A stretch of DNA of 64,000 nt from a virus, in the IMG/VR virus record IMGVR_UViG_3300026136_000008. The stretch is one strand, 5' to 3'. Both the position numbers and the translations under genes were made by a program. The notes beneath the pieces are model-generated. The model was not told the origin of the DNA. It saw nothing but the letters and a program-made list of their open reading frames with translations, and did not search any database. Below are positions 4,472 through 64,000 of this stretch, one piece after another; position 1 is the first letter of the stretch; each line of letters begins with the position of its first letter.

Positions 4472-4479
4472 TATTTATA
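4472..4479 (-). promoter_or_regulatory. Late promoter TATAAATA
   Basis: Exact consensus upstream of gp20. Confidence 0.8.
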
Positions 4480-33274: not shown

Positions 33275-33900
33275 AATCTCTCTGCCAAATGTCCACCTAA
33301 ATCGTATTTACCTAATATCAACCTACGCGGTTCATCATGGTGTACTTTGTGATAACCATCGCCACCTAAAATCCAATTCATCCATGGACCATCTGTCGGA
33401 CCATTCCAATGACCAAATATATTTAACATACCAAATCCTACCTTTGCAAATAGGTATGGCATAAATGCTGCACCCCACCAGAAGTATGGTGATATAGCCA
33501 TACATACTGCCCAATATAACCATAAGAATGTTTCCCAATTCTCATGAGCCCATACAAGTCTTGGGTTATTGTATAAGTCTTTTGCAAACCTTACTGGAAC
33601 ATGTTTTAAATCCCAAGTAGTAGTTGCTACTTTCCAGTAACCTATTCGTTTAGCGTCATGTGGATCTAATGGTCCCTCTGTATCTGCATGGTGCATTCTA
33701 TGAGAACTTATCCAACCAATAGGTGTACGAACACACGCAATGAGTATGCCTATAATAAAGCCCCATTCGTGAAATACACTTGTTCTAAATTGTCCGTGAG
33801 CAAAGTATCTATGTAATCCCACGGAGACAGCGTAATGTGTAATTACCTGACACCATAAGAAGCCTAAGCCTGTTGCCCATAAAAATAATTCTAAATCCAT
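33256..33900 (-). CDS. Membrane fatty-acid desaturase (delta-9-like)
   Basis: His boxes HRYFAH, HRMHH, HKVHH plus TM segments. Confidence 0.88.
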   Translation of the reverse strand: MDLELFLWATGLGFLWCQVITHYAVSVGLHRYFAHGQFRTSVFHEWGFIIGILIACVRTPIGWISSHRMHHADTEGPLDPHDAKRIGYWKVATTTWDLKHVPVRFAKDLYNNPRLVWAHENWETFLWLYWAVCMAISPYFWWGAAFMPYLFAKVGFGMLNIFGHWNGPTDGPWMNWILGGDGYHKVHHDEPRRLILGKYDLGGHLAERFWKKRL

Positions 33901-34631
33901 TTTCCCATTGCCATATATCTATTCCAAAAATTATATGTCTTACCTTCTTTACTTTTCATTGTTCGCCATCCACCATTTAATAATTGAATGCCATTCTTTT
34001 CTGCCAGCTCTTGCTCATTTTCTACACAATTAATATGATCGTCTTCATCCGTTTTATTATTACTTTGTAAACATAATAAGGTTCTTTCAGGATCAAAATA
34101 ATATTCTTTCATACTCAACATATCTGGCATATGTTCACATGAGGTATTAATTATTAAATGAGCTCTACGCTTCTCTTTATAATTAAAATAATCACCCATG
34201 CTATTGCTAAATATTTTAACATCTTGTATATCTACCCACCATGTACTTAGATATACTCCAAACACTTTTGCCGCAAATGGATCCACATCAAAAAAGTCAA
34301 TAGCTCTTATCTGATCACCGTATTTATTATATAACAAATCTATAAGAGGAAAGCCAAACCAACCACCAACAATTTCAACCTTAAATCGACCTTCCTGATC
34401 ACGTGGTATTTGTACCTTATCTAATTCTTTTACTAACCAATTCTTACCTTCTATCTGATTAGGTGATATGCTTTCAATAAATCTATCCATCTTATCTGGA
34501 TAATTTCTATTAAACCATTTGAGCATATTATAATATATTTCAGGATCTACTGGTTTTTTTACATCATGACCCATATGATCTGCGTCACGTGGTCCTAATT
34601 CTTTTTCTAAATCTACTATTCCTAATTGCAT
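33891..34631 (-). CDS. Class I SAM methyltransferase-like protein
   Basis: IVGGWFG, FDVDP, IINTSCEHM. Confidence 0.6.
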   Translation of the reverse strand: MQLGIVDLEKELGPRDADHMGHDVKKPVDPEIYYNMLKWFNRNYPDKMDRFIESISPNQIEGKNWLVKELDKVQIPRDQEGRFKVEIVGGWFGFPLIDLLYNKYGDQIRAIDFFDVDPFAAKVFGVYLSTWWVDIQDVKIFSNSMGDYFNYKEKRRAHLIINTSCEHMPDMLSMKEYYFDPERTLLCLQSNNKTDEDDHINCVENEQELAEKNGIQLLNGGWRTMKSKEGKTYNFWNRYMAMGKWI

Positions 34632-35119
34632 CCGTATACCACATAATATTTACCTTTCCATCTATTAAATTCATTAAATGTCCAGATTTCTTTTAATTCA
34701 TTTTGTTCCGCTAATTGTTTATTACCAGTAATAGGATTACAATCACCGTTATGATGTTCATTATCACCTACTAATATAAATTCTCTATCCTTATACATCT
34801 TACCTAACGGCCACATCTTTTCACAAGCATAATTTATAATGAGCTCTTCTTTTAGTTCAATATCAAATACAACATCAGCAGTAATAATTTCATCGCAAGC
34901 TCTTTGAGGATCGTAGTCGTACATATTTACTGTAAGTCTATCAATAGCATTAAACTCATCATATAAATTTCTTTTATCCGCTGGGCCCACGATAGCAATA
35001 GATTCAGCTTCACTAAATGTTGTTATTTGTGTATATATCCAGGCATCAACTTGCGTCATAACTTGTCCAATATTCCCAGGGCCATTGACCCTCTGTTTCA
35101 TGTAATTCAAATGCTTCAA
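34622..35119 (-). CDS. Methyltransferase-like paralog of the adjacent gene
   Basis: YDYDP, IINYACEKM, N..H..DCNP..QLAEQN parallel motifs in the 33891 gene. Confidence 0.5.
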   Translation of the reverse strand: MKHLNYMKQRVNGPGNIGQVMTQVDAWIYTQITTFSEAESIAIVGPADKRNLYDEFNAIDRLTVNMYDYDPQRACDEIITADVVFDIELKEELIINYACEKMWPLGKMYKDREFILVGDNEHHNGDCNPITGNKQLAEQNELKEIWTFNEFNRWKGKYYVVYGCN

Positions 35120-35849
35120 TACCCATTCTTTGTATTCGAATGTGTGATGTATTAAATAATGTCATCCTTGCTTCTTCTCTTTCGGTATGAGGCGGCTCAC
35201 TAAAATTATAATTATCTACAATGCCTTCTTCCCAATACGCTAATCTATCGTTACGATAATGCTGGTAATATAAGTATTTATCTAAAGACTTGTAGGTGAA
35301 CATGAGCTTCTCTAGATTTTCATTTGTATAATCAAATAACCATTGAGCATCTTGCCATGCCACAAAGCTTGAGTTAACGTGACAATCTGATCCTTTACCA
35401 AACCATTTGTGTGCACCTTCTTTTTTTATATTCCAGTGGTTTAGAATAAATGTTGGCTTATCAAAATCTCTACTTACTAATTCTGTTATATCACCGTGAA
35501 TTAAATTATCTAAGTCTACCCACAGCTTTGTGCCTGGAAGATCTAAATCAAATAGACATAATTTTTCACGAGTAAAAATTTTATCTTGACCATAAGATCT
35601 CCAATGATCTGGACCAAATGTATTATAATCTATTAAGCCTACATCAGGATTAATCCCACTAGGGTTATCAGTAATACAAGTAAAGTTAAAATCCAGATCA
35701 CAAAACCTCTTTATACTTCCGTATAATCTATTAACATATTCTGGTCCATATAATGTTCCCCACTTAAACGTAAAGAAGTTTAATTTTACTTCCGGGTTCG
35801 ACTTCGCTAGGAAATCCTCCGTACTCAATAATATACCATCTGATGACAT
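35046..35849 (-). CDS. Glycosyltransferase (GT-A, DxD)
   Basis: KWGTLYGPEYVNRLY, FTCITD, WVDLD, VNSS. Confidence 0.75.
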   Translation of the reverse strand: MSSDGILLSTEDFLAKSNPEVKLNFFTFKWGTLYGPEYVNRLYGSIKRFCDLDFNFTCITDNPSGINPDVGLIDYNTFGPDHWRSYGQDKIFTREKLCLFDLDLPGTKLWVDLDNLIHGDITELVSRDFDKPTFILNHWNIKKEGAHKWFGKGSDCHVNSSFVAWQDAQWLFDYTNENLEKLMFTYKSLDKYLYYQHYRNDRLAYWEEGIVDNYNFSEPPHTEREEARMTLFNTSHIRIQRMGIEAFELHETEGQWPWEYWTSYDAS

Positions 35850-45034: not shown

Positions 45035-45073
45035 ATAAATAAACTTATGTTAATCAATTTATTATTATTTATA
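45034..45073. promoter_or_regulatory. Face-to-face late promoters (+ 45034-45041; - 45066-45073)
   Basis: Two exact TATAAATA on opposite strands, each overlapping the start codon of the other strand's gene. Confidence 0.7.
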
Positions 45074-45750
45074 TGAATTATAAGACTACTAAAATAGAAA
45101 TACCAAAGACTGGAAATTTACTTTTGTGGGTATCTGGCGGACTTGATTCAGCATTAGGATTATATACTATAGCTAAACATATTAAAGAAAATAAACTAAA
45201 GAATAAAATTGTTGTAGCTACATGGAAAAGAGACGCAGATGATAATCCTAAAAAGGGTAAACCTGCTAAAGATTGGAATGTTACCCACGCTAAAAAAGTT
45301 ATGACATGGGTTGAAAAAGAATTAAAATTAACAAAGACTCAGAAGTTTCAACATATTATTGTAGATACTCCACCTAAAGATGGTTTAAGAATTGATAACG
45401 ATCAATGGCAGAAAGTATTTGATGATAATAAAAAGAAATACAAATTAAAAGAGTGTTACGGATTTGTTACTAAAAACCCATCTAGACCTGTTATGATAGA
45501 ACATGATTTATATACTGATGATAGACCTGCTTATAGAGATGGTGCAAAAAGATATCATCCTGAAAAACCATTTCAAAATCATGATAAAGCTTGGGTAGCC
45601 CGTTGTTTTGAATCGGAAGGTTTAATGAAAGGTTTATTTCCTTTAACAAGATCTTGTGAAGGCCAGGCAGATGAAACAAAAAACTTTACTAAACCATGTA
45701 AGAAATGTTGGTGGTGTAAAGAGAAATACTGGGCTTTTAAACAGTATTAA
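45073..45750 (+). CDS. QueC-like PP-loop ATPase, paralog of 38155-39054
   Basis: SGGLDS; LTRSCEG...CKKCWWC. Confidence 0.8.
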   Translation: MNYKTTKIEIPKTGNLLLWVSGGLDSALGLYTIAKHIKENKLKNKIVVATWKRDADDNPKKGKPAKDWNVTHAKKVMTWVEKELKLTKTQKFQHIIVDTPPKDGLRIDNDQWQKVFDDNKKKYKLKECYGFVTKNPSRPVMIEHDLYTDDRPAYRDGAKRYHPEKPFQNHDKAWVARCFESEGLMKGLFPLTRSCEGQADETKNFTKPCKKCWWCKEKYWAFKQY

Positions 45751-47218: not shown

Positions 47219-49510
47219 TTAGTTAAGTAATGAACCTGCAGCGTTGTAGATATCTATACGGTAATGAGAACCGTGTTGACCATCTAGTAAGTCAGCATCT
47301 AAACCTGAAGAAGCACCATCAACTGTCTTAATAGCAGTTAAGATTTCTGCAGCTGTTTGGTCAGCCGTTGCAGAAGCTTCAATACCATTTAGTTTAGTGT
47401 GGTCTGCATCTGTGAATACATTACTGTCCGTCGCTGCTTCAACCGCTGCTCTAATTTCAGCATCAGTTTGGTCAGCTGTAGCAGAAGCTTCTATACCATC
47501 TAGCTTAGTATGATCAGCGTCAGTAAACACATTTGAATCCGAAGCAGCTTCAACCGCTGCACGTATCTCAGCGTTTGTTTGATCAGCTGTTGCACCAGAC
47601 TCAATACCATCTAGCTTACTACCGTCAGTGGCTAAGTCACGTCCGTCAACCGTACCACCAATTGTCAAGTTACCTGATGAAGGATTATACGCTAATCCAG
47701 TATCACTTTCAAGACCTTGTGTACCTGTAGCACCATCAACAAATACTGGATAAACAGTCTCATCAGTAGAGTTATTTGCAGTAATTGTAACAGTAGTTGC
47801 TAAAGTTGCTGTATCAGCATTACCTGTAACTGCACCCGTAACATCACCTTCTAAGTTAGCAACTAAAGTACCAACTGCATAGCCAGTACCAGAAGTATTA
47901 ACTGTTGTAGTAGGCTCAGCTTGGTTGTCTTTAAAGATCTTCCACTTACCTGAATCAGAAGCATCTCTAAAGATACCACCATAAAGGTCTTGTGAACCTG
48001 ATGTATCATACAATCCGTATAGACCAATATCCACTGCATCAGCCGAACCATTGTTGGTAGCTAGTGATAATAGTGGATCAGCAACTTCGATTGTTGTTGA
48101 GCTAACTGAAGTGTTCGTACCAGATACTGTTAGGTTACCAGCAATTGTTACATTATCTGGTAGACCGACTGTGATTGTTCCTGAAGACTCAGCAACTGTA
48201 ACCTCGTTGGCAGTTCCGGCGAAAGTAACTGTACCACCGAGAGCTGTGGCTGTTGAGTTTGAACCATCACTTACAGTAATAGTTGAGTTAGCAAGTTTAG
48301 CGTTAGCAATTGAACCACTTAAGTGTGAGTTATCAACTGAACCTGCAACTAGATGCTCACTATCAATTTGAGCGTCAGCAATCAATGCAGATGTAATTTG
48401 ATCAGCTGCTATATGTGCAGTGTCAATTGAACCATCTACATAGTGCTCTGAGTTAATTGAATCATCAGCAATCTTAGTTCCATCTACCGCATCAGCAGCT
48501 AGACGAGCAGTATCAACCGCACCATCTGCTATCTGAGCTGTGTCAATTGCATCATCTGCCATCAAAGCGTTTGTGATTTGATCTGCAGCAATGTGAGCCG
48601 TGTCGATTGAACCATCAACATAGTGTTCACTATTGATCGAATCATCAGCAATTTCTGCACCAGTAATTACATCAGCACTAATGTTTGTTACACCCGCATT
48701 AGTCATTGTTACATCACCACTTAGTGAAGCAGCAGTAAATCCAGTGCCATCACCAATTAGTATTTGAGTATCTGCAACAGCTTTAGCTGAAAGAACACCA
48801 GAACTATTTGCATCTCTTACTATAACTGTGTTAGCAGCTTGAGAAGCAATCTTTGCTAATGTTACATTTGCATCTTGAATATGTGCTGTGCGTACTGCAT
48901 CATCAATAATAGCATCAGTATTAATAGAGTTTGGAGCTAAATGCTCAGCATCAATTGAATCTGCAACGATATGCTCTGAGTTAATAACATCATCTGCAAT
49001 CAATGAAGCAACAATCTGATCTGCAGCAATATGAGCCGTATCGATAGAACCGGCGGTGATATGCTCTGAGTTAACTGCGTTATCTGCTAGATGAGTACCA
49101 TCAATAACATCTGCGCCTAGTGTTATTACACCACCATCTGTCATTGTAGCATCACCAGACATCACATTGTCGATCCACATTGATGTTCCTGTGTCATATA
49201 ACAACATAGATCCATCGGCGGCAGATGTGATATTTACATCGTTATCTTCGGCAAGAGTATTCTCAGCGCCAATTTGTGCATCAACGTAAGCTTTGACGGA
49301 TTGTTGCGATGGTACCTTCGTGGCAAGGTTAGATGCCATGTTATCTTCGTCAATTAACCAAGAATAACCGGAAGCATCAGATTGTGCTGAAGTTACAATC
49401 GTACCGGCGTCGTCCGGTAGAGTTATTGTTCTATCAGTATTTGAATTAGGAGAAGTTAATGTAAATACACCAGTTCCGCCTGAATCACCCTGAATTTTTA
49501 TCTTTGACAT
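47219..49510 (-). CDS. Tail fibre-like repeat protein
   Basis: Ala/Asp/Thr/Gly-rich; decapeptide IxxxxIDxxH repeats; 37-aa KLDGIE repeats; DADLLDG motif. Confidence 0.8.
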   Translation of the reverse strand: MSKIKIQGDSGGTGVFTLTSPNSNTDRTITLPDDAGTIVTSAQSDASGYSWLIDEDNMASNLATKVPSQQSVKAYVDAQIGAENTLAEDNDVNITSAADGSMLLYDTGTSMWIDNVMSGDATMTDGGVITLGADVIDGTHLADNAVNSEHITAGSIDTAHIAADQIVASLIADDVINSEHIVADSIDAEHLAPNSINTDAIIDDAVRTAHIQDANVTLAKIASQAANTVIVRDANSSGVLSAKAVADTQILIGDGTGFTAASLSGDVTMTNAGVTNISADVITGAEIADDSINSEHYVDGSIDTAHIAADQITNALMADDAIDTAQIADGAVDTARLAADAVDGTKIADDSINSEHYVDGSIDTAHIAADQITSALIADAQIDSEHLVAGSVDNSHLSGSIANAKLANSTITVSDGSNSTATALGGTVTFAGTANEVTVAESSGTITVGLPDNVTIAGNLTVSGTNTSVSSTTIEVADPLLSLATNNGSADAVDIGLYGLYDTSGSQDLYGGIFRDASDSGKWKIFKDNQAEPTTTVNTSGTGYAVGTLVANLEGDVTGAVTGNADTATLATTVTITANNSTDETVYPVFVDGATGTQGLESDTGLAYNPSSGNLTIGGTVDGRDLATDGSKLDGIESGATADQTNAEIRAAVEAASDSNVFTDADHTKLDGIEASATADQTDAEIRAAVEAATDSNVFTDADHTKLNGIEASATADQTAAEILTAIKTVDGASSGLDADLLDGQHGSHYRIDIYNAAGSLLN
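47345..47620 (-). repeat. 111-bp (37-aa) tandem repeat, about 2.5 copies
   Basis: KLDGIExxATADQTxAEIRAAVEAAxDSNVFTDADHT repeated. Confidence 0.8.
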
Positions 49511-49527
49511 TTATCGTCTCCTAAAAA

Positions 49528-52500
49528 TTAAACCACTACCCAAGTAGATCCGCTAGGGACCGTCACTGAATAGCCTGAGTTAATGGTTATTGGTCCAGCA
49601 GTTAACGCGTTGTTACCAGAAGTTATTTCATAATCTTCTGCAACTGTATAACTGTGTTCCCACATAACCTTTCCTGTAGTGTTTCCACCACCAACTAATC
49701 CCCACTCACTTCCATCATAGATTTCCGCACTTGAAGTTGTTGTATTCCATCTAAAGAAACCAGCACTTGGAGATCCATCTCTCTGTGCTGTAGTTCCTGA
49801 AGGTATCTTCGCAGATGCGTTAGCACCTGATTCCATTACCGCGCCAGCAGCTTCTACATTTGTAGCATCCGTGACATCTGCTAATGCTTCAATACCACCT
49901 AGTTTTGCTAGTGCAGCATCTGTAAAGTCATTAGTACTTTTAACGTGTGTTGTACCATTATCAATATCATCTAATGTACCGCCCATTTCTGATAAATGAT
50001 CTTGTGTTGCATCAGCGGCAGTATATGCAGTTGTAATTGCAGCTTCACGTGCATCTACATATGCTTTAATTGATTGTTGTGTTGCTAATTTAGTAGCAGA
50101 ATCTGACGCCATATTATCTTCATCAACAACAAATCCCATTCCAGAAGTTGTTGTATCTGATAACATAACTGCACCAGCAGCATTAACATTTGTTGCATCT
50201 GTTACATCAGCATTAGCTTCGATATTTGCTAGCTTAGTAAATTGCGCATCTGTAAAGGCTGAGGTTTCTGCCTCATATAATGCTTTAATCTCAGCACCAG
50301 TTTGGTCTGCGGTTGCAGCAGATTCAATGCCATCTAGTTTTGTACCATCTGCAGCAACATCACGTCCGTCAACCGTACCACCTACTGTTATATTACCAGT
50401 AAGACTTGCAGTTGCACCTTCAAGGTTAGCAACCATAGTACCAGTTGTAATTGTTAAGTTACCGGTTGAAGCACCTGTAAATGATCCTGTACCAACTATA
50501 AATTTATCTGCACTCTCATCAAATCCGATAAAGGCATTATCTGATGAACCACGTTCAAATACTAAACCTAAATCACCTGATGGTGAACCAGTTTGACCAT
50601 TACCAAGTTCGATTAACTTATCAGTAATAACAGTGTTTGTCGAAGCGGCTGTTGTTGTAGTACCATTAACTGTAAGGTTACCACTAACAACTACATCATC
50701 AAACGTTACATCAGCATCGGTAGCAACTGATTGTCCAATAGATATTGCACCACCTGAATATGTAACACCCGTGCCAGCACTTAAATGAGCCCGTACTTCA
50801 GCAGCACTTGGCCCTGTATATGTAATAACACCAGTAGAATTATTGTAAGCTAATGAACCATCACCTCCAGAATCAGTAACACTAATATGTGCTCTGGCTT
50901 CTGCAGCACTTGGACCAGTATAAGTTATTACACCGGTAGAATTATTATAAGCTAATGAACCATCACCACCAGCATCGGTAACACTTACCTTACCTCTAAT
51001 AACAGCATCTGTAATTGATAGATCTATTGCACCATCACCATTATCATCATATGTTGCTGTGATATTTGTGTGTGAACCATTAGTAGCAATTTGAGCACCT
51101 GCAGCATCTTGTGCTCTCTCGTCTGTGAAGTATAAGTTAGCTGAACCTTCACTAAGGTCATCTGTATCGTTAGCAGCTAGATCATAACCACTTGCACCCG
51201 TTGTTGCTGATATTGTTAATCTATTATTAGCATCATCATATGTTGCAGTTACGTTTGTACCACCAACAATCAATGCACTTACACGATCATCAACTCTTTC
51301 CTCTGTGTAGTATAAGTTATTTGAACCCTCAGCAGTTTCGTCTGTAGTTTGTGCATCAACATATGCCTTAATAGATTGTTGAGTAGCAAGATGAGTAGCA
51401 CTATTTGATGACATATCATCTTCATCTTTAACTGCTGAACCACTAACACCCGTATTTAATACTGGTGAAGTTACTGTTGGACTAGTTAATGTCTTATTAG
51501 TTAATGTCTGTGTGCCTGTTAATGTAGTAACTGTTGAGTCGATAGCAAATGTAACAGCGTTTCCAGAGCCTGATGTATCAATACCTGTACCACCAGTAAA
51601 TGTTAATGCTTCACTATCTAAATCAATTGATAATGAACCACCGCTGTCGGCAGCAAAGTCTAAGTCTTGAGCAGTAACTTGAGAGTCTACATAAGCTTTA
51701 ATTGATTGCTGTGTTGCTAGTTGAGTAGCAGAATCACTAGACATATCATCTTCATCTAATATAGCTGTACCACTTACTCCTGTATTTAGAACAGGTGAAG
51801 TTAATGTTTTATTTGTTAATGTTTGTGAAGCTGTATTTAAAGTAATAGCACTCGTATTAGATAAATCAGTTGAAGCAATTGTAATATCAGCAGAACCATT
51901 AAAGCTTTGACCCGCAATTGTTCTTGCAGTTGCTAATGTAGTTGCTGTATCTGCATTTCCAGTTACGTCACCTGTTACATCACCTGTTAAATCACCAACA
52001 AATGCTGTTGATGTAATACTTGTAGCACCCGTAACTACACCTGCATCAACATTAATTGCACCATCTAATACAATTTGTTGTCCAGCGAGTGGAGTAATAT
52101 TTAAATCTGTACCCGCAGTAGATGAAATAGTATTTCCATTAATGTTAATATTATCAACATCTAACGCTGTTAATGTACCTAATGAAGTAATAGCAGTTTG
52201 TGCAGCACCTGTAACTGTAGCTGCTGTACCAGATACATTTCCTGTTACATCACCTGTAACATCACCCGTTAAATCACCAGTTACATTACCTTCAAGGTTA
52301 GCAACTAATGTACCAGTCGTATGGCCAGTAGCACTTACATTAACTGTAGTAGTTGGTTCGGCTTGTGAATCCTTATATAGTTTCCACTTACCAGAATCTG
52401 ATGCATCTCTAAATAGACCTGAGTATAAATCTTGTGAACCGCTTGTATCATATAAACCATAGAAACCTATGTCAACTGCATCTGCAGAATCATTATTTGT

Positions 52501-53745
52501 AGCTAATGATAACATTGGATCTGCAACATTAACAGTAGTCGATGAAACAGTTGTTTGTGTTCCTGATACTGTTAAGTTACCACCAATCGTAACGTTTCCA
52601 TTAATACTAGCAATAGTAGGATTGGTTAGTGTTTTATTCGTTAATGTTTGTGTACCTGTTAATGTAGCAACAGTAGAATCAATAGCAATCGAGATGTCAT
52701 TATCAGATACTGTTGTATCAATACCTGTTCCACCAGTAAAGTTTAATGTATCAGTGGCAAGAGCTACTGTATCATCAGAACCTGAATCAGCTCCAACCGT
52801 TAATGATGTTGTAATAGACGCAGTACTCGCTGCTGTAATTAAACCTTTAGCATTAACCGTAATAACTGGAATTGCTGTTGTAGAACCAAATGAACCTACG
52901 TTTGAATTAACTGTAGCAAGAGTAATTGCACCTGTATCAGCTAGAGTAGCATCGCCTGACATGACATTATCAATCCAAACAGAATTACCAGTGTCATATA
53001 ATAACATTGAACCATCTGCTGGAGATGTTATAGTTGTATCGGCTAATTCACTTAATGCATCGGCTGTATCTACTTGAGCATCAACATATGCTTTAATTGA
53101 TTGCTGCGTAGCAAGATGAGTAGCTGAATCACTAGCCATATCATCTTCATCTTTAATTGCAGTACCAGAAATTCCTGTATTTAATACTGGACTTGTTAAT
53201 GTTTTATTTGTTAATGTTTGGGAGCCCGTTAATGTTGTAACAGTGGAATCAATAGAGGCAGTAATGCTATTACCACTACCTACAGTGTCGATACCTGTAC
53301 CACCTGCGATTGTAAGTGACTCTGAATCTAGGTCAATGCTTAATGCACCACCTGAATCACCTTGAAAATCTAGGTCTTGGGCAGTTACTTGTGCATCCAC
53401 ATAAGCTTTAATTGATTGTTGTGTAGCTAAATGTGTTGCTGAATCTGTTGATAAATCGTCTTCATCTAATACTGGAACTACAAAATCAAGTGTTCCATCT
53501 GAGTCATCATAGGTTACTGAGATAAATGTTTCAGTATTTGAGGTGACCATTGCACCTACTAAATCCTCTACATTCTCAATATTTTGTGTGAATTGTGGTA
53601 ATGAATTCCAAGCAGTTGAACCATCACCCATTTTAATAAAGTTATTAGTTTGGTCAAGCCCCATCTCACCAGCGGCAAGGGTTGGGTTATTAGACGACCA
53701 ATTGGCCGCTGTATCTCTTCTTATCTTAAATATTGTTCCTGCCAT
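49528..53745 (-). CDS. Long tail fibre-like protein with an Mtd-N-type N-terminal domain
   Basis: IRRDTAANWSSNNPTLAAGEMG...KMGDGSTAWNSLP; five DEDDMxSDSATxLATQQSIKAYVD modules; QTLTNKTLT repeats. Confidence 0.85.
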   Translation of the reverse strand: MAGTIFKIRRDTAANWSSNNPTLAAGEMGLDQTNNFIKMGDGSTAWNSLPQFTQNIENVEDLVGAMVTSNTETFISVTYDDSDGTLDFVVPVLDEDDLSTDSATHLATQQSIKAYVDAQVTAQDLDFQGDSGGALSIDLDSESLTIAGGTGIDTVGSGNSITASIDSTVTTLTGSQTLTNKTLTSPVLNTGISGTAIKDEDDMASDSATHLATQQSIKAYVDAQVDTADALSELADTTITSPADGSMLLYDTGNSVWIDNVMSGDATLADTGAITLATVNSNVGSFGSTTAIPVITVNAKGLITAASTASITTSLTVGADSGSDDTVALATDTLNFTGGTGIDTTVSDNDISIAIDSTVATLTGTQTLTNKTLTNPTIASINGNVTIGGNLTVSGTQTTVSSTTVNVADPMLSLATNNDSADAVDIGFYGLYDTSGSQDLYSGLFRDASDSGKWKLYKDSQAEPTTTVNVSATGHTTGTLVANLEGNVTGDLTGDVTGDVTGNVSGTAATVTGAAQTAITSLGTLTALDVDNININGNTISSTAGTDLNITPLAGQQIVLDGAINVDAGVVTGATSITSTAFVGDLTGDVTGDVTGNADTATTLATARTIAGQSFNGSADITIASTDLSNTSAITLNTASQTLTNKTLTSPVLNTGVSGTAILDEDDMSSDSATQLATQQSIKAYVDSQVTAQDLDFAADSGGSLSIDLDSEALTFTGGTGIDTSGSGNAVTFAIDSTVTTLTGTQTLTNKTLTSPTVTSPVLNTGVSGSAVKDEDDMSSNSATHLATQQSIKAYVDAQTTDETAEGSNNLYYTEERVDDRVSALIVGGTNVTATYDDANNRLTISATTGASGYDLAANDTDDLSEGSANLYFTDERAQDAAGAQIATNGSHTNITATYDDNGDGAIDLSITDAVIRGKVSVTDAGGDGSLAYNNSTGVITYTGPSAAEARAHISVTDSGGDGSLAYNNSTGVITYTGPSAAEVRAHLSAGTGVTYSGGAISIGQSVATDADVTFDDVVVSGNLTVNGTTTTAASTNTVITDKLIELGNGQTGSPSGDLGLVFERGSSDNAFIGFDESADKFIVGTGSFTGASTGNLTITTGTMVANLEGATASLTGNITVGGTVDGRDVAADGTKLDGIESAATADQTGAEIKALYEAETSAFTDAQFTKLANIEANADVTDATNVNAAGAVMLSDTTTSGMGFVVDEDNMASDSATKLATQQSIKAYVDAREAAITTAYTAADATQDHLSEMGGTLDDIDNGTTHVKSTNDFTDAALAKLGGIEALADVTDATNVEAAGAVMESGANASAKIPSGTTAQRDGSPSAGFFRWNTTTSSAEIYDGSEWGLVGGGNTTGKVMWEHSYTVAEDYEITSGNNALTAGPITINSGYSVTVPSGSTWVVV
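50780..50990 (-). repeat. Tandem ~34-aa duplication within the fibre gene
   Basis: SVTDxGGDGSLAYNNSTGVITYTGPSAAExRAH twice. Confidence 0.8.
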
Positions 53746-54105: not shown

Positions 54106-54777
54106 TTATAATCCGCCTTGTCCGTTAAGCAAACAGATTGCAGCGCTTTCTAAAAAATAAGGCTCATCGGGAGGGTTATACCAAGACTCTTCTTTAATCC
54201 CATAGTATCTTGAATAGATTCTTCCTTGCTTCCAGTAATTAGAAGGAGCAAAGCCTTCACAATATATAAAGCCATCTATTCCAGGATAGGTTATCATATA
54301 GTCATCGGGATTTTCCCAGAAATGTTCCCATATATGATAGTTCTCATCATTCCAAAATACCATTACACTTGAGTTTATATCATGATCTCTTATTGTTCGA
54401 CCTTCGAATACCCAATCAGATCTTAATTGTTCTATAGGTTTCCAATAACATTTAACCATTGTAAACTCGTGTGCCATATAGATTTCATCTAATCTACCTT
54501 GTATAACAACATCTAAGTCTAGATATAACCATTTACCTTCAGGTAATATGCCAGGCTTAAACAACATAAGCTTATTCCATACACCGTGCAGATCCATATC
54601 AATCAACGGTATCCAATGAATATGTGGATGTAACCCTATTGAATCATCGGTATAACAATAGAATTGTATAGAGTTCTCGTGTTCACCCCATTGCAATTGA
54701 TTTCGAATACTATAATATAGCTTATTGACATCATCGGCACTATATTTGTCACCCCATTTTACTGTTACAATGTTAAT
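54106..54777 (-). CDS. Glycosyltransferase (GT-A, DxD), probable ATT start codon
   Basis: In-frame upstream extension NIVTVKWGDKYSADDVNKLY matches the paralog at 35046; YLDLDVVI, INSS. Confidence 0.78.
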   Translation of the reverse strand: MNIVTVKWGDKYSADDVNKLYYSIRNQLQWGEHENSIQFYCYTDDSIGLHPHIHWIPLIDMDLHGVWNKLMLFKPGILPEGKWLYLDLDVVIQGRLDEIYMAHEFTMVKCYWKPIEQLRSDWVFEGRTIRDHDINSSVMVFWNDENYHIWEHFWENPDDYMITYPGIDGFIYCEGFAPSNYWKQGRIYSRYYGIKEESWYNPPDEPYFLESAAICLLNGQGGL

Positions 54778-56087
54778 GGTACTCTCCTTGGAAATAATTT
54801 TACTTTTGCTAATGCTTTTAAACTTTTATCATGCCAGTTATTCCAATACATAATATAATTATCTGGATCAATATCTATACCATTATTTATTAAATAATCT
54901 GGGTTATATAACTTATCAAATGTTACTTGTATTATTCCCATGTGATCTCGAACCTTATGATTCTTTTCCCAAAAATCAATAGTGACTCTTCTTGCTCTAT
55001 CAGAATCTGGCCAATTCATATCGTGTGGACTTATTTTATCGCCCATTGCTTTATGAACTTTTTCTAAATCTTGTTCTTTCATCTCAAGTCTTTTTACATT
55101 AACTTCATCATTCTTAAAATATGATATTGATATCCTCGGCCAAAATTTAGATACCATAACACCATAAACTATATTATTTAATGTGATACAATCCATTTGT
55201 TCTATGTTTACACCAAAGTTATTATGCTGACCTATTATATCTAAAGTCCTATAATACAGGGGAATAGTATCATCATCTAAAATTGGAGCAAGGTACCTAC
55301 AATATCTATCTATATTTTCTTCAGTAGTATATTCTGGTTCCCAATCTTTTTCAAGATAATACGCATTACTTTTCTCGCCCCAAATACCAGTAATTCCTTT
55401 TTGATATCTCCAATCAGCAACACGAATTGCTTCTAGCTTACGTTCATATTCCCATTCAGGTTGAAGGTATACTTTCATAGTTTCTAACATTTGAATGTAT
55501 TCTTGATAGTCACCGCCACTAATAGAAAAATATTTTCCTTTTGGACCCCAACACATTGTAAGAGGAGTAATTCCGTGTGTTCGTATTAGATACGGTTTAT
55601 CTTGATTTGCAAATGCATCTCGTATTTCAGATAATGCATCATCCATAATTTGTGGTCTTTCACTATCTGGATCTTCTCTATTTTTTATATGATCGTATAA
55701 TAATCCAAATGGATTTTCAAGAGTCTCTTCAGGTATTATAGGTATATTCTCATACTCTGGTACCCAACAATGAGAAGTATAAAGATTATCAACACCGTCA
55801 AGTACAAATACATCTGCAAACAAAAAATCAAAAAAGGTTTTTTGCCTATGTGAACTAGGATTTAATGCAACATCATTACCTTTTGAGCCATCAATCATAG
55901 CCATAAGATTTTCAGGTATTAAGTTTTGGTCATAAGACATTTTAATAACTTCTTTATTAAAAAATAAATCGGTCTCTTGTGTTAACCAATTACATAAACC
56001 TTCACCACCTGCTCCACCCTGATATGATATGACTACAAACTTATGTGCATTCTCTTCACACCATTTTATAAATTTATTTTTATTCAC
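54765..56087 (-). CDS. Hypothetical protein (possible P-loop/sulfotransferase-like N-terminus)
   Basis: VISYQGGAGGEGL and LIRTH; the functional call is weak. Confidence 0.5.
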   Translation of the reverse strand: MNKNKFIKWCEENAHKFVVISYQGGAGGEGLCNWLTQETDLFFNKEVIKMSYDQNLIPENLMAMIDGSKGNDVALNPSSHRQKTFFDFLFADVFVLDGVDNLYTSHCWVPEYENIPIIPEETLENPFGLLYDHIKNREDPDSERPQIMDDALSEIRDAFANQDKPYLIRTHGITPLTMCWGPKGKYFSISGGDYQEYIQMLETMKVYLQPEWEYERKLEAIRVADWRYQKGITGIWGEKSNAYYLEKDWEPEYTTEENIDRYCRYLAPILDDDTIPLYYRTLDIIGQHNNFGVNIEQMDCITLNNIVYGVMVSKFWPRISISYFKNDEVNVKRLEMKEQDLEKVHKAMGDKISPHDMNWPDSDRARRVTIDFWEKNHKVRDHMGIIQVTFDKLYNPDYLINNGIDIDPDNYIMYWNNWHDKSLKALAKVKLFPRRVPLTL

Positions 56088-56706
56088 TTTCTATTTCTTC
56101 TACGAGTTGATCTCTCATTGTTTCATTACGCATATAGAATGCTATACTCCATCTTGGTTCATTAGTCATAGCACAATGAAATGTTGATTCTTGACCTGGT
56201 CCATACCAACCAGTTTTGCAAGTCCAGCCTGGTCTATCTTTAATAGTATGTATCTTACCAGTTTTCCAATCACGATATCTATAAAAGGCATCACCGCCTT
56301 TACTCCAATTAAATAATACTGTATAACCTGGAGCATCACGATTATCATGCCAACCTATATATCCATCTTCAGGATAATAGCAGAATAATGCATTTTGTTG
56401 TGCACCTAATTCCTGTGCAAAAGTAAAGCTTACATCTTTCATTAAATCCTGCCAGTCTTTTGCTATATTATAATTATTACATAAATCAAATAACTTCGCT
56501 ATTTCAGGCGGACCTCTAAATTCTTTTTTCTTAGTTTTCTCAAGAATATAATTTAAATATTCTTTGGATGTTGCATAGTGTTTATGTTTATCACCACGTT
56601 GTTTTATTCGGCGCTGGATGTATCCTATATCCATACTATTAATAGTATCAATAAACCCATCAAGTCTTTCTAATATCTCTTTATTTTTAATTAATACTTC
56701 GCGCAT
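56080..56706 (-). CDS. Fe(II)/2OG oxygenase-like protein
   Basis: YYPEDGYIGWHDN...FHCAMTNEPRWSIAF. Confidence 0.65.
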   Translation of the reverse strand: MREVLIKNKEILERLDGFIDTINSMDIGYIQRRIKQRGDKHKHYATSKEYLNYILEKTKKKEFRGPPEIAKLFDLCNNYNIAKDWQDLMKDVSFTFAQELGAQQNALFCYYPEDGYIGWHDNRDAPGYTVLFNWSKGGDAFYRYRDWKTGKIHTIKDRPGWTCKTGWYGPGQESTFHCAMTNEPRWSIAFYMRNETMRDQLVEEIESE

Positions 56707-57406
56707 CTGCTGGTTTTTTTAATGGTAATGTATAATGCCATACTACTATTGGTCCTTTGCATTCATCTTCTTTATATATGTAAACAAAATTCCATCTTGC
56801 ATCATCTTCGTATATACTTATATCTAAATCAGAATACGTATTTTCAGTTAACCACCATAATGTTAATTGATCCCAATTTACTAATCTCTCTTTTGGTTGT
56901 ACACCTTCGGGCCACCAAGAGCCATCACGTTGTTTATTATAGTATTTCCACCAGTCATCCATAAATTCTAATACACGTGGTGTTGACTTATAACCGAATA
57001 CACCACCATGAAGAACCATTTCACCTCCAATAAATTTAGCTATCTTACCTGCGTATGGTCTTATGTTAGTAAATACTAAATCGGAATCGAAGTCAAACAT
57101 CTTAGATACATCTTCATGTTGCACAAATGTATCAGCATCTAAGTATACAGTTTTATCAAATGGGGTTTTAGAGAGGCAAGCCAACTTGGCTCGAACATGA
57201 TTAGGACAATCATCAACCATATAGAGATCATCACAGCGTGGATCAGATTTTGTCCATTGTTCATGAGCGAATAAGGCTATATTTGCCTCTGGCATATAAT
57301 CTAATAAGGAGTCAATAAGCATATGAGCTGCCTCATAATACTCATAAAACTGACTTGCTACAATTATAAAACCGTTAGGCTTTTGGTTTTTCTGCTTCCT
57401 TACCAT
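56687..57406 (-). CDS. Glycosyltransferase (GT8-like, DxD)
   Basis: TPFDKTVYLDADT, HGGVF, WDQ, ARWN, VWHY. Confidence 0.78.
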   Translation of the reverse strand: MVRKQKNQKPNGFIIVASQFYEYYEAAHMLIDSLLDYMPEANIALFAHEQWTKSDPRCDDLYMVDDCPNHVRAKLACLSKTPFDKTVYLDADTFVQHEDVSKMFDFDSDLVFTNIRPYAGKIAKFIGGEMVLHGGVFGYKSTPRVLEFMDDWWKYYNKQRDGSWWPEGVQPKERLVNWDQLTLWWLTENTYSDLDISIYEDDARWNFVYIYKEDECKGPIVVWHYTLPLKKPADARSIN

Positions 57407-57830
57407 TTTCTTCTATAATAATAGCAGCGGAGTACGCCATAATCTCAATCATGTTTGTTGCTTTACGTACTTTAGATTTGAGTGCTCTATTTTTAGAAGC
57501 TTTAATTTCTGGTATTTCAAATGAATCAACCTTTGCAGCAAATAAAGCTTCATTTTTTGCTTTATCCATTTCGGCTTTTTGTTCAGCTGCGCGTACTGCT
57601 TGATTTTCGTGATGTGCCTCAGCCTTCTTTTTAGTGATGGCTTTAATTTCTTCGTGAGTGAACGTATTAAAGATCTCCTTCCAATCAGGATTATCTTTTT
57701 GTCCATCGGGAGTGTTACTTACTGAAACGGTTTGATTTGTGCCATCTGCAAATTCAAAATTACATACGATGATATCACAACTCTTGTCCGCGTAATACGG
57801 CTCAAGTATTTTTCTGCCTTCTACAGCCAT
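57375..57830 (-). CDS. Hypothetical protein
   Basis: ORF in operon; GAGG SD; late promoter at 57862-57869. Confidence 0.6.
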   Translation of the reverse strand: MAVEGRKILEPYYADKSCDIIVCNFEFADGTNQTVSVSNTPDGQKDNPDWKEIFNTFTHEEIKAITKKKAEAHHENQAVRAAEQKAEMDKAKNEALFAAKVDSFEIPEIKASKNRALKSKVRKATNMIEIMAYSAAIIIEENGKEAEKPKA

Positions 57831-57861: not shown

Positions 57862-57869
57862 TATTTATA
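57862..57869 (-). promoter_or_regulatory. Late promoter TATAAATA
   Basis: Exact consensus ahead of the small modification island. Confidence 0.72.
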
Positions 57870-58268
57870 TCAACTCAAAAGATGCCATCCATCTATGTGT
57901 TCTACTCCTGTATCAGGGTTAATGTCTTTTGATGAAACTGTCCAGCCACCGGTTTGCAAACCAGAAGTATCCGTTGACCCGTTTGCTATAATGTCTGCTT
58001 TAAGTACATCTTCTGTCCATATTTGTTTAATAGCGTATCCATTACCTGCAGTTCCGCTAGATACTGGCTCACCATTAGATGTTAAGTATCTTGTTGATGT
58101 AACTCCAGTTGGCGGACTTGATTCAGCTGATCCAGCAGCATAACTATTATAATCTGCTATTGTATCGCCATTTCCTATACTAGCAAAATGTGCTTCCATT
58201 GCTTCATCAGCTGTATTAAATGCAGCTCCTTCTTTTTCGAAGTTAACTATTATATGATGATCTGCCAT
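57870..58268 (-). CDS. Hypothetical, probably virion-associated protein
   Basis: Gly/Ser/Thr-rich; follows 58270-59250 directly; AAGGA SD. Confidence 0.6.
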   Translation of the reverse strand: MADHHIIVNFEKEGAAFNTADEAMEAHFASIGNGDTIADYNSYAAGSAESSPPTGVTSTRYLTSNGEPVSSGTAGNGYAIKQIWTEDVLKADIIANGSTDTSGLQTGGWTVSSKDINPDTGVEHIDGWHLLS

Positions 58269-58269
58269 A

Positions 58270-59250
58270 TTATGCCGTCCTTAGCCACAATGAAACAGTA
58301 GAAACAGTTTCATTTGACGATTGAATTGTTGCACCGGTATAGTTACCAGTATATGTGCCAGAGTAATAACCTGTATATGTGCCAGTATATGTACCGGAAT
58401 ATGGACCTACCTGACGTCCTGAGTAGAATGTTGAATATGAACCAGTATAGTTACCAGTATAATCACCTGCATAAGCACCAGTATAATCACCAGCGTATGA
58501 TACATCTGTACGTTCTTTTCTTGTATCAGAGAAAGCATCGCCAACTCTTTGCCATGTTCCTGAAGCAGGAGCAGATGCTTGTAGTACATACTTACCAATA
58601 CCTGTATCTACAATAGACTCTTGATATATTTCTACTAAGTCATTAATCTCAGCATCAGATAATTCACTTAATCTGCTGTTACCTGCATCCCAAGCTAATG
58701 GACGTGTAGCAGTTGTATTCGAACCGGTTGTTCTCTTCCAAAGTTTAGTAGAGTTATTTACACCTGATTGAAACTTATTATTAATAGTAGCAACCTCAGA
58801 CCATGTACCTGTACCAGGAGCACTTGGTTGTAATACATATGAACCTACACCACCAGCAGCAATTTTAGCATTAACTCTGTCAATAATATCAGCTCTCATT
58901 TCAGCATCTGTCATTTCGATAATACCATCATAAGAACCAGAATCATATTTAACCGACATTGGTCTCCTTGTTGGAGTAGGAGTAACATCAGTTAGGTTTT
59001 GTCTAAAGACATAGTTATCTGTATGAATAGTTGTGTTAGCTGGGTGAGTACCAACAGCTTGATCACGTCTTGTATCTGCGAATGTACCAATGTCTGTCCA
59101 ACCTGATTCTGCATTCATAGCAAGGTGACCAGTATTATTAGAAGTCATTCCAGAAAAATGGTCTAGAATTAGATCTACATTGTCATCAATTTCTGCAGAT
59201 GACATCTCTTTTAACGAGCTTGATCCATTCCACTTTAAAGGTTTTGCCAT
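58270..59250 (-). CDS. Virion structural-type protein with three internal repeats and a (Y-x-G-x)13 insert
   Basis: KPLKW..EMSSAEI / RPMS..EMTDAEM / RPLAW..ELSDAEI repeats; YAGD YTGA YAGD YTGN YTGS... Confidence 0.7.
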   Translation of the reverse strand: MAKPLKWNGSSSLKEMSSAEIDDNVDLILDHFSGMTSNNTGHLAMNAESGWTDIGTFADTRRDQAVGTHPANTTIHTDNYVFRQNLTDVTPTPTRRPMSVKYDSGSYDGIIEMTDAEMRADIIDRVNAKIAAGGVGSYVLQPSAPGTGTWSEVATINNKFQSGVNNSTKLWKRTTGSNTTATRPLAWDAGNSRLSELSDAEINDLVEIYQESIVDTGIGKYVLQASAPASGTWQRVGDAFSDTRKERTDVSYAGDYTGAYAGDYTGNYTGSYSTFYSGRQVGPYSGTYTGTYTGYYSGTYTGNYTGATIQSSNETVSTVSLWLRTA

Positions 59251-60933: not shown

Positions 60934-61185
60934 CTAAAATGTACCACCATTAATTTTTGTATTACTGTTCGTGTCTTCCATCACAGGTTTAACCTTAAAA
61001 GTACTTGATGACGCATCATATTGTATGATCGATCCATCAACTCTTGCAGATACATCAACATCTGTTAATGTGGATAACTGAGTAGTAAATGTTGAAACAG
61101 AAATATTTCTTGCAACTATTTCTTTTTGTTTCATTCCAGCACCTTGTAACGGCCTAGTTGCCGTAATCTTACCTTGTAATGCCAT
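60934..61185 (-). CDS. Small structural or fibre adaptor protein
   Basis: LSTLTDVD...DGSIIQYD module; ends in NGGTF. Confidence 0.65.
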   Translation of the reverse strand: MALQGKITATRPLQGAGMKQKEIVARNISVSTFTTQLSTLTDVDVSARVDGSIIQYDASSSTFKVKPVMEDTNSNTKINGGTF

Positions 61186-61520
61186 TACTGTGTTACTCCT
61201 GGAGTCACTGTTACTTGTCCTTCTATTACCCTAGTTTTTTCACCCGAAGATGTTTTTGTTATCTCTACATCATAAACATAACGCCCAGCTTTCATACCAT
61301 TTGTTACGCTATTAGCCAATGTTATTGTAATTTCACCTGCAGTAGCATTTGATACAGTTGCTCCAAAATCTATTGCAGTACTTGACGAATAGCTTTTTCT
61401 TATTTGTCCTGCAACAGTATATCCTGTTAAGTTTGCTACATTACCTGCAGCATCTTCTACAATAACCTCAGCACTATAATCTGCACCCTGATCTATACTT
61501 AAATTACTTAATATTGCCAT
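61185..61520 (-). CDS. Ig-like baseplate/fibre attachment protein (BppU-N-like)
   Basis: LSIDQGADY, GRYVYDVEI, RVIEGQVTV. Confidence 0.7.
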   Translation of the reverse strand: MAILSNLSIDQGADYSAEVIVEDAAGNVANLTGYTVAGQIRKSYSSSTAIDFGATVSNATAGEITITLANSVTNGMKAGRYVYDVEITKTSSGEKTRVIEGQVTVTPGVTQ

Positions 61521-62765: not shown

Positions 62766-62966
62766 TTATCTCTCTATTAATTGTTTTAACATATCTTTAA
62801 TTTCAGATACATCTTGTTCTACTTTATCCAAACGTTCTTGATGCACTCTTGCTTCTTCTTTAAGCGCAGCTCTATTCATAGAGTGTATCTTACTGTTACT
62901 CATATTTATAATCGCTCCAGACTTTGGATCTCTTGCTAAATTAGTATATCCTTCAACTTTTATCAT
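62766..62966 (-). CDS. Small conserved T4-like hypothetical protein
   Basis: IKVEG...LARDPKSGAIIN plus C-terminal coiled coil. Confidence 0.7.
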   Translation of the reverse strand: MIKVEGYTNLARDPKSGAIINMSNSKIHSMNRAALKEEARVHQERLDKVEQDVSEIKDMLKQLIER

Positions 62967-64000
62967 TATACTTGAAGTGCTATAGCTCTAAGTTGTTGAA
63001 CCATCGGTATATCACTTGTATTAGTAGATCTCATTACAATCTTAATAGCAAATAATGTAAATGTTGCTGCAGGTGTAATAGTATATACCGTCTCATTAAA
63101 TTCATAACCGTCTGAGAATGCAACTGTAGTTTCATCATTTGTTGCTAACACCCATGACTCTGTATCAAAATCTGCTAAGTTATTACCAGTCTTATGATAT
63201 ACGTCAATAAATGTATTATTCGGACGATGTAAATCCATAATTAGTTTAATTCCATCTGAATCATTTTGTAATTCAACAGTCTTTGTTACGTACTTCGCTA
63301 AGTTAGCACCACCCGCTGCTGTATCTTCACCACTTGTTACATTATCAATACGATTTCCAATAGTAATCAATGAACATCTTTCCATATCAATAACTGGTGA
63401 TAGGTAACTATTGCTTGATGTAAATGTAGACTCAAGTTCTACTGTGTGAGTTCCACCTGATTTAATCACCTTCGGACTTAACGGTGTATAATCTTCATTT
63501 GCTCTTATTGCTAATGCTGTCGTTCCAATAGTTGTACCATTACCTTGAGCTGTATCTTTAATTGTATACGTTGTTCCAGTATCAGGTAATATAAGTTCTT
63601 GAATAATTGGTTTAACTGTATTCCAAGCTAAATGCTGTGTTGCAGTACACGCTGCTCCACCACCAATACCTGTAGCACTACCGGTTCCAGCTGATACAAA
63701 TGTATATGTATCATGAGTCACAGCAGTAATTGTATGTGCTTTATTTAGATGCGTAGTAGTATGACCGTTAATCGTTGCAGCAACTCCAGCTATAGTAACT
63801 GAATCGCCAACTGCATGACCATGATCACGATGAGCAACAGTAATATTTTGTGAACCACTAGTTGTTGTAATTGGATTATTACCTAATGCTCTTGCTTCTA
63901 AAGTGTCATTTCTTAATACCGCATTACGTGTTTGCGAAGTATCAAACTCAGCTCTATGCATAACAAATGTTAAGTCTTTACCTTGCTCAGCAGTCCATGT
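62966..64000 (-). CDS. C-terminal part of a large virion structural protein (DUF4815/VrlC-like); starts outside the window
   Basis: Frame is open to the window edge (TWTAEQGKDLTFVMHRAEF); SPVID, KYVTKTVEL, FAIKIVM...LRAIAL. Confidence 0.75.
   Translation of the reverse strand, partial: TWTAEQGKDLTFVMHRAEFDTSQTRNAVLRNDTLEARALGNNPITTTSGSQNITVAHRDHGHAVGDSVTIAGVAATINGHTTTHLNKAHTITAVTHDTYTFVSAGTGSATGIGGGAACTATQHLAWNTVKPIIQELILPDTGTTYTIKDTAQGNGTTIGTTALAIRANEDYTPLSPKVIKSGGTHTVELESTFTSSNSYLSPVIDMERCSLITIGNRIDNVTSGEDTAAGGANLAKYVTKTVELQNDSDGIKLIMDLHRPNNTFIDVYHKTGNNLADFDTESWVLATNDETTVAFSDGYEFNETVYTITPAATFTLFAIKIVMRSTNTSDIPMVQQLRAIALQV

Follow-up and report, generated by a model that had tools for sequence, protein, structure and literature searches.

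We describe here YLAD, a protein of 326 amino acids (aa) encoded in a 64,000-nt stretch of viral DNA (IMG/VR record IMGVR_UViG_3300026136_000008, hereafter the window) that is that of a T4-like marine myophage. On balance, YLAD is probably a late-expressed virion fibre or whisker with a new architecture, functionally tied to a three-gene cassette that would glycosylate the fibre and perhaps hydroxylate or mature it. This reading is carried by a long aromatic ladder whose two arms change length together among homologues and by the strict association of YLAD with the same three downstream genes. While fibres and virion glycosylation are already known kinds, the architecture of YLAD was previously undescribed, and no description of the YLAD family or of the four-gene block was found in the searched literature.

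The ladder lies in the third of three repeats

The YLAD gene and its ladder occupy the following positions.

58270..59250, minus strand: YLAD, 326-aa putative fibre protein with a three-repeat base (aa 1-250 and 309-326) and an aromatic-x-Gly-x hairpin (open reading frame (ORF) and translation)
58330..58497, minus strand: ladder, aa 252-307, with 7 rungs, a G-R-Q-V-G-P tip and 6 rungs (sequence, model and co-varying arms)

A first-pass annotation of this DNA had described seven rungs, a turn and six rungs, inserted in the third of three repeats and protruding as a long beta-hairpin, a description that was confirmed for the ladder and the repeats and is well supported for the hairpin. The ladder reads YAGD YTGA YAGD YTGN YTGS YSTF YSGR-QVGP-YSGT YTGT YTGY YSGT YTGN YTGA, in exact agreement with the translation of aa 252-307, and 13 of the 20 Tyr of YLAD follow an exact period of 4. 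Repeat 3 aligns with repeat 2 (45% identity over 42 aa, E 6e-12) and with repeat 1 (33% identity over 66 aa, E 4e-7). Within repeat 3, the ladder is flanked by an F-x-D-T-R motif and by the closing L-W-L-R-T-A strand, two elements that are joined by a short loop in repeats 1 and 2. At the DNA level, it is composed of two separate degenerate 12-bp arrays, at 58333-58407 and 58441-58493. The ladder is not a chance feature, because it is retained, at varying length, in hundreds of homologues.

The two arms of the ladder change length in lock-step

YLAD was modelled by AlphaFold2 (AF2) with a 48-sequence alignment. The model has a mean pLDDT (predicted local distance difference test) of 87, with values above 90 in the base, where a strand-strand-helix-strand-strand-strand pattern occurs three times. 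In this model of the monomer, the ladder forms the long beta-hairpin proposed earlier, with strands at 240-272 and 284-324.

The hairpin is independently indicated by the lengths of the arms in homologues. Arm 1 was taken as the stretch between the conserved D242 column and the first Gly of the tip, and arm 2 as that between the second tip Gly and the T308 column. Arm 1 exceeds arm 2 by exactly 10 residues in 38 of the 48 aligned homologues. Twelve arm-length classes were observed (23/13, 27/17, 31/21 ... 67/57), each step changing both arms together by 4 residues. The same constant offset was obtained by a cruder regular-expression extension, with arms up to 135/138, a method which misplaced many tips across the whole family and for which only 19 constant-offset cases are informative. 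Such joint changes in two separate arrays are what a paired antiparallel ribbon would require. The tip motif of the short forms is conserved (aromatic-aromatic-x-G-R-x-x-G), and Y252, G254, Y304, G306 and T308, located at the hairpin foot, are invariant in the 48 sequences. If G278 faces G282, these foot residues would pair Tyr opposite Tyr and Gly opposite Gly.

One could argue instead that the ladder is a slippage-prone, low-complexity tract, disordered and devoid of specific structure or function, as might be suggested by the degenerate 12-bp tandem arrays of the arms and by the low pLDDT at the tip. However, random slippage in two arrays would not give equal rung changes on both arms over 12 length classes, and the conservation of the tip motif and the invariance of the five foot residues also speak against it. 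We regard this explanation as the least credible of all those considered.

An alignment-independent VIA search with the YLAD base gave four best rows that are all MABP-type beta-prisms:

8b6v, Mpf2Ba1 C-terminal domain, Z 7.3
2qp2, Plu-MACPF C-terminal domain, Z 7.2
3tow, MVB12B MABP, Z 6.2
6sb1, perforin-2 P2, Z 5.5

The fold of these domains is pseudo-threefold, in line with the three repeats of YLAD. We use the MABP beta-prism as a working analogy for the base, without implying membership.

A viral family with ladders of 8 to more than 400 rungs

Among the 90% clusters of metagenomic proteins, 931 relatives of YLAD were found at E <= 1e-3, with 534 representatives at 50% identity. YLAD matched no Pfam or PHROG family at E <= 0.01 and no fibre-family model. 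In the collections searched, the family is viral or phage-only wherever taxa are known. No relative was observed in bacterial and archaeal genomes with the single YLAD protein as query, a scan that detects close relatives only, and a shape search of the ESM Atlas returned only the family's own unnamed viral clusters.

The size of family members goes from about 300 aa up to 3347 aa. The base of three repeats and the C-terminal closing strand are kept in all of them, very long ones included. The ladder has anything from a few rungs (8 at the lowest) to over 400, and protein length is correlated with rung number (r = 0.91). Ladder composition was counted over 190 non-redundant members, representing 9131 rungs:

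Rung position 1: Y 70%, F 27%, W 3%
Rung position 2: T 38%, S 19%, A 13%
Rung position 3: G 58%, R 8%
Rung position 4: variable (T, S, A, N)

This composition indicates that what the ladder conserves is an aromatic ring at every fourth residue, followed two positions on by a small residue, and not the Tyr hydroxyl.

The longest members, a 2089-aa ORF in locus L081 and CDS0201 of Phage C48C1 (Kyanoviridae; 3347 aa), have ladders broken up by several non-ladder segments, presumably globular. The C48C1 protein (OQ984149; L084 12-10055), annotated as 'hypothetical protein', carries the YLAD base at its N-terminus and the closing strand at its C-terminus. The ladder of about 3000 aa in between consists in large part of Y-x-R-x-R-x-S-x or F-x-G-N-Y-x-R-x, of period 8, and two of the several segments interrupting it are near-duplicates. 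No Pfam domain was detected in the inserts of four long members or of the C48C1 protein, and phmmer with one long member (P0192) gave no match in the PDB. A lectin- or LamG-like resemblance of one insert was dropped, as the Pfam and phmmer searches gave it no support.

YLAD and three genes form a conserved block

We compared 82 related loci with the proteins of the window, 80 of them obtained from IMG/VR through the YLAD alignment and 2 from one long metagenomic contig. Besides YLAD, the block includes three genes, one of which encodes a protein with the fold of 2-oxoglutarate (2OG) oxygenases, a double-stranded beta-helix (DSBH):

57375..57830, minus strand: p151, conserved partner directly after YLAD (79/82 and 80/80 loci)
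56687..57406, minus strand: GT8-like GT-A glycosyltransferase (GT) with an invariant DxD (79/82 loci)
56080..56706, minus strand: 2OG-oxygenase-fold (DSBH) protein, hereafter 2OG-like (76/82 loci; AF2 pLDDT 95)

The order YLAD (1-3 tandem paralogues), p151, GT8-like and 2OG-like was found, with the genes adjacent, in 79 of 79 assessable loci, the other 3 of the 82 ending at a contig border. A reciprocal search from the GT8-like gene gave 80 further IMG/VR loci; 78 have YLAD and p151 upstream and the 2OG-like gene downstream and the remaining 2 are cut just upstream, so that the block is intact in 78 of 78 assessable cases. The block does not derive from one clone, because clustering of the GT8-like ORFs leaves 65 groups at 90% identity and 25 groups at 70%. 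Among 50,697 GenBank phage records, each of the four proteins matches one and the same record, that of Phage C48C1, in which the genes are adjacent. None of the four was found in the cultured pelagi- and cyanomyophages of GenBank, some of which carry other GTs. No homologue of YLAD in a phage lacking these enzymes was thus observed among the assessable loci and the GenBank phages.

The rest of the region is reshuffled between loci. The gene upstream of YLAD may be VrlC itself or may encode a 536-aa fibre, a 402-aa protein or another fibre fragment. Downstream of the block, p246, p267 (often in three copies) and a 196-aa glycosyltransferase are present in varying numbers and in either orientation. 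Many relatives in L032-L082, apparently from freshwater (e.g. L066 6953-12795 and L081 7112-16528), have two or three YLAD paralogues in tandem (600-2090 aa), after which comes the same cassette, with p267 in triplicate.

The products of the block and of its neighbours

For p151, no match was obtained in Pfam, PHROG or, by profile search, the PDB. An Atlas feature search gave sub-threshold leads (0.80-0.81) to tail-assembly-chaperone families. The predicted complex of YLAD with p151 scored 0.00, a value that counts neither for nor against binding.

In the GT8-like protein, D90-x-D92 and the C-terminal H224 are invariant in 29 sequences. Its profile has a single match in the PDB, glycogenin-1 (E 0.004), covering 97 of 236 positions in the nucleotide-binding half, DxD included. 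In a scan of 123 proteins pooled from six cassette families, PF01501 was matched at E <= 0.01 in 10 rows, which are not split by family; in the same pooled tally, PF03407 and GT2 each match some members.

The model of the 2OG-like protein gave 203 matches in the PDB at E <= 1e-3 with Foldseek, a Pseudomonas prolyl 4-hydroxylase (P4H) first (7e-6), then PolD, AlkB and PHD2. Its sequence profile had no match in the PDB, the relation being seen by fold search. Invariant residues form an H120-x-N122...H177...R185 pattern, spaced as in canonical 2OG oxygenases. R185, located 8 residues after H177, is by its spacing a putative 2OG-binding basic residue.

Further genes, some of them frequent companions of the block, are located as follows.

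57870..58268, minus strand: 132-aa ORF between YLAD and p151, not in the conserved block
54765..56087, minus strand: 440-aa ORF, a lineage-specific insert in the block (homologues in 4/82 loci, closely related)
54106..54696, minus strand: 196-aa glycosyltransferase, frequent further cassette member (phrog_1962, E 3e-12; 70/82 loci)
35046..35849, minus strand: p267, 267-aa paralogue of the 196-aa glycosyltransferase (71/82 loci)
33891..34631, minus strand: p246, 246-aa protein accompanying the cassette (58/82 loci; no PHROG match)

Homologues of the 132-aa ORF are present in 5 of the 82 loci, all close relatives, and neither this ORF nor the 440-aa one has a match in Pfam or PHROG. In most other phages p267 adjoins the 2OG-like gene or p246, often in 3 copies, whereas in the window it is split from the block by fibre and radical SAM genes. 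The 196-aa glycosyltransferase (54106-54789 region) is shorter than its homologues (202-295 aa), and translation may in fact begin elsewhere than at its first ATG/GTG/TTG.

Among the downstream enzymes named in the first-pass annotation, the 196-aa glycosyltransferase and the 2OG fold were recovered. Its other glycosyltransferase and the oxygenase come with caveats, namely a GT8-like match below the Pfam cut-off and the H-x-N motif. The 440-aa 'sulfotransferase-like' protein was left with no family match. The proposed co-occurrence of such ladder proteins with enzyme islands was borne out strictly for p151 and the GT8-like and 2OG-like genes, loosely for further glycosyltransferases, and not for the 440-aa gene or the radical SAM genes.

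YLAD occupies a fibre slot of the phage genome

YLAD is located between a VrlC-like gene and gp13/gp14/gp15, among PHROG tail-fibre genes, and is so placed in all related loci. On the minus strand, the end of the VrlC-like gene is followed by fibre genes, YLAD, the enzyme genes, two large fibre genes and eight radical SAM genes. Beyond the remaining genes of the region lie the neck and sheath-stabiliser genes gp13, gp14 and gp15, the terminase, the sheath and the portal.

62966..64000, minus strand: C-terminus of a giant VrlC-like structural protein, upstream border of the fibre region (phrog_358, E 2e-51; upstream of YLAD in 62/82 loci)
47219-53745: two large fibre genes downstream of the YLAD enzyme genes
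35982-47173: eight radical SAM genes and two interspersed non-radical SAM genes (PF04055, E 1e-7 to 1e-16; one weak SPASM match)

In pelagimyophages and cyanomyophages, VrlC and gp14 delimit the host recognition cluster, which holds GT8 glycosyltransferases and variable radical SAM cassettes (PMC7029224). Resemblance at the DNA level to cultured phages (e.g. Melnitz and Mosig) is confined to the neighbouring 536-aa fibre gene of the window. The fibre slot of compact relatives such as L029 holds no long fibre-like gene besides YLAD, which is therefore read as a virion fibre or whisker. A match to an 'L-shaped tail fiber protein assembly' PHROG (E 1e-28) was obtained for a 111-aa protein (61185-61520, minus strand), which is found next to the cassette in 45 of the 82 loci, mostly directly ahead of the next fibre gene.

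The T4 late-promoter consensus TATAAATA is present in 25 copies in the window, against 12 expected, mostly on the coding strand. Copies at 4472, 6793, 11680, 57862 and 61537 are just upstream of genes, and the one at 57862-57869 is directly upstream of p151. As consensus matches only, the enrichment and the p151 copy fit co-expression with structural proteins. Scans for sigma-70 promoters and terminators in the window gave background level.

The radical SAM genes bear on another proposal of the first-pass annotation, a core like that of ribosomally synthesised and post-translationally modified peptides (RiPPs) built into a virion protein. Its Tyr ladder would be cross-linked by radical SAM/SPASM enzymes and hydroxylated or glycosylated by adjacent ones. 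The eight genes, directly after the two large fibre genes, are indeed 11-22 kb downstream of YLAD, Tyr is the commonest residue at the aromatic position of the ladder, and the best PDB match of the GT8-like protein, if only at E 0.004, is the Tyr-O-glucosylating glycogenin. However, no more than 8 of the 82 loci have homologues of the radical SAM genes at a distance of up to 10 kb from YLAD; judging from this small share, the array is a variable add-on cassette, as such genes are described in PMC7029224, and not a conserved partner. Moreover, Phe or Trp occupies 30% of the aromatic positions and some members with about 86% Phe keep the cassette. No leader peptide or RiPP recognition element is evident in the 326-aa YLAD, although no dedicated search was made. 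The link to radical SAM enzymes and the cross-linked core are thus not supported, and we consider a RiPP-like ladder very unlikely.

A proposed single-chain ribbon fibre and its cassette

In the architecture we favour, the three tandem repeats of about 90 aa would form, in one chain, a pseudo-threefold base, probably a beta-prism, docking to the particle. In repeat 3, the last hairpin would be extended into a two-stranded antiparallel ribbon. An aromatic residue (Tyr, Phe, rarely Trp) would point every fourth residue to the same face as the Gly two residues later, with small polar residues (Thr, Ser, Ala, Asn, Asp) on the other face. Evolution would tune the length by whole four-residue rungs, gained or lost on both arms jointly. 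The fibre would measure about 9 nm here (about 28 residues per strand at ~3.3 Å per residue) and be far longer in relatives of 1000-3300 aa with globular inserts. The tip motif of the short forms is a likely contact point with the host surface. The invariant cassette, composed of p151, the GT8-like DxD glycosyltransferase and the prolyl-hydroxylase/AlkB-fold protein and usually accompanied by further GTs, would be tied to this fibre. It would most likely glycosylate, perhaps hydroxylate it, or be needed for its maturation.

On which residues the cassette might act is constrained by the ladder itself. One member, on a 139-kb contig, has a ladder of 24 Phe to 4 Tyr and keeps p151, the GT8-like and the 2OG-like genes together with a further GT. 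Going by the sequences, the Tyr hydroxyls of the ladder, proposed earlier as a substrate, are weakened as candidates and cannot be a universally conserved modification target. With Phe common at the ladder position, any target of the cassette on YLAD must therefore be another conserved feature. Candidates would be the Thr/Ser of the polar face, the invariant foot Tyr or base residues such as H69-P70, P145 and P228. For a glycogenin-type modification, the Tyr acceptor candidates would be the invariant Y252 and Y304. A bolder version, in which YLAD is an appendage of a new class, a single-chain beta-ribbon 'ruler' fibre whose ladder is coated with glycans like a bottle-brush, appears to us rather improbable. 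The coat, possibly Tyr/Thr O-linked, would be made by the glycogenin-like GT8, the atypical H-x-N protein and up to four further GTs. If true, a phage infecting Gram-negative bacteria would here have, for the first time, a protein glycosylation system specific to its fibre.

Several points weigh against the fibre-and-cassette reading. In the distal part of the hairpin (aa 261-300), pLDDT is ~49-63, and a model of such low confidence does not fix the cross-strand register of the ladder, which may place Tyr opposite Tyr or opposite Gly. Foldseek with the YLAD model found no significant match in the PDB and BFVD, only hairpin rows to pore toxins at E 0.1-1. The beta-prism match is middling, and Z 5.5-7.3 with ~10% identity makes an analogy without establishing homology to MABP prisms. 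The virion location is a prediction, made from the position of the gene in the genome. Adjacency of the four genes in one phage lineage could partly reflect vertical inheritance of the block and not an enzyme-substrate relation. As for the enzymes, the GT8-like protein reaches Pfam Glyco_transf_8 (PF01501) at E 3e-4 with 20.9 bits, below the 24.3 cut-off. In all 29 2OG-like sequences Asn replaces the iron-binding Asp/Glu of the triad, which makes the chemistry uncertain; this protein may be a non-working hydroxylase, or a non-canonical or non-oxidative DSBH protein. Finally, the GT8 genes of the pelagimyophage host recognition cluster have been read as modifiers of the O-chain of host lipopolysaccharide (LPS) (PMC7029224).

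The last point leads to the main rival, in which the neighbouring enzymes do not act on YLAD. They would remodel the LPS or capsule glycans of the host at a late stage of infection, or produce a glycan to which the fibre binds, and travel with YLAD as one host-recognition unit. GT8 enzymes include many LPS transferases. Such a role would account for the co-location in the host-recognition region, and the cassette persists where the ladder is almost devoid of Tyr, with few hydroxyls on one arm. It explains less well the co-distribution, which is strictly one-to-one in both directions, and the absence of all four block genes from every GenBank phage other than C48C1, including the cultured pelagi- and cyanomyophages with other GTs. 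Nor is it favoured by a block kept intact while the surrounding region is reshuffled, by the late-promoter motif ahead of p151 or by a p151 without enzyme features. We therefore hold the fibre to be the better candidate for the object of the cassette and give host-glycan remodelling a minor but real chance.

The weak Foldseek rows could also be taken at face value. The hairpin would then insert in a membrane, the hairpins of a YLAD oligomer together making a pore or needle of the beta-barrel type, in the manner of aerolysin-type or MACPF-associated proteins, and the resemblance of the base to beta-prism domains attached to MACPF proteins goes in the same direction. However, the pore-toxin matches concern the hairpin only and are not significant, and neither face of the ladder is aliphatic or amphipathic like that of barrel stems. 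A span of 8 to more than 400 rungs, with globular inserts in the long members, is a poor fit to a membrane-spanning stem. A pore is, in our opinion, quite improbable.

Comparison with known systems

The MABP domain of MPEG1 carries 'an extraordinary elongated beta-hairpin' whose tip binds acidic lipids (PMC6753088). As is proposed for YLAD, the MABP beta-prisms (MPEG1/perforin-2 P2, Plu-MACPF, Mpf2Ba1 and MVB12B) consist of a pseudo-threefold prism with one hairpin greatly extended and an aromatic and basic tip. Unlike them, YLAD has a long helix in each repeat and a periodic aromatic-x-Gly-x hairpin of evolvable length, and it is phage-encoded and stand-alone, with no MACPF domain.

With classical tail fibres and whiskers (T4 gp12, gp34-37 and fibritin), YLAD shares the baseplate-neck slot, a predicted elongated shape, a variable distal part and assembly-factor-like neighbours. 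Known fibres, whether triple beta-helix, beta-spiral or coiled-coil, are homotrimers of three intertwined chains. In contrast, the threefold unit of YLAD is fused in one chain, and its shaft is predicted to be a single-chain two-stranded ribbon returning to the base. A further parallel is offered by OspA-based self-assembly mimics, known for cross-strand aromatic ladders and 'aromatic rescue of glycine', in which flat, exposed single-layer sheets gain stability from aromatic rows beside Gly. These systems are engineered or short, whereas the YLAD ribbon would be natural, two-stranded and of tens to hundreds of rungs.

Glycogenin is a retaining, self-glucosylating GT-A enzyme (GT8) with a protein Tyr as acceptor. 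Its nucleotide-binding half and DxD align with the GT8-like protein, but at E 0.004 acceptor specificity is not readable from the match, and Phe-rich ladders keep the GT8-like gene. Cluster F1 mycobacteriophages (Che8, Rita), whose GTs modify their own structural proteins according to a published summary, are the nearest precedent for the role proposed here for the cassette. Besides the capsid, tail-tube proteins are reportedly glycosylated, at their C-terminal tails. In the summary given by PMC11256854, which cites Freeman 2023, phage-encoded glycosyltransferases glycosylate capsid proteins of mycobacteriophages. There the cluster F1 glycans are on major capsid proteins (PMC11256854). The enzymes are unrelated; in the YLAD case the target would be a fibre, as proposed from the genes, and the set includes a DSBH protein.

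With the host recognition cluster of pelagi- and cyanomyophages, the window has in common the VrlC-to-neck region, fibres, GT8s and variable radical SAM cassettes. A ladder protein and an invariant block of four genes are absent from the published account (PMC7029224), in which modification of host LPS is the role given to the GTs.

Significance

Host-recognition fibres decide which bacteria can be infected, and for the abundant T4-like phages of marine and fresh waters most of these fibres lack an annotation. YLAD would represent a fibre design unlike the known trimeric fibres, with a fused pseudo-trimer base, an aromatic ladder growing in four-residue steps and optional globular inserts. The ladder would also be a natural model of a long solvent-exposed two-stranded beta-ribbon, of interest to protein design. 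The strict link with the cassette makes testable the idea that 'auxiliary' glycosyltransferases of marine phages modify the virion, and it calls into question the published view of these GT8 genes as modifiers of host LPS.

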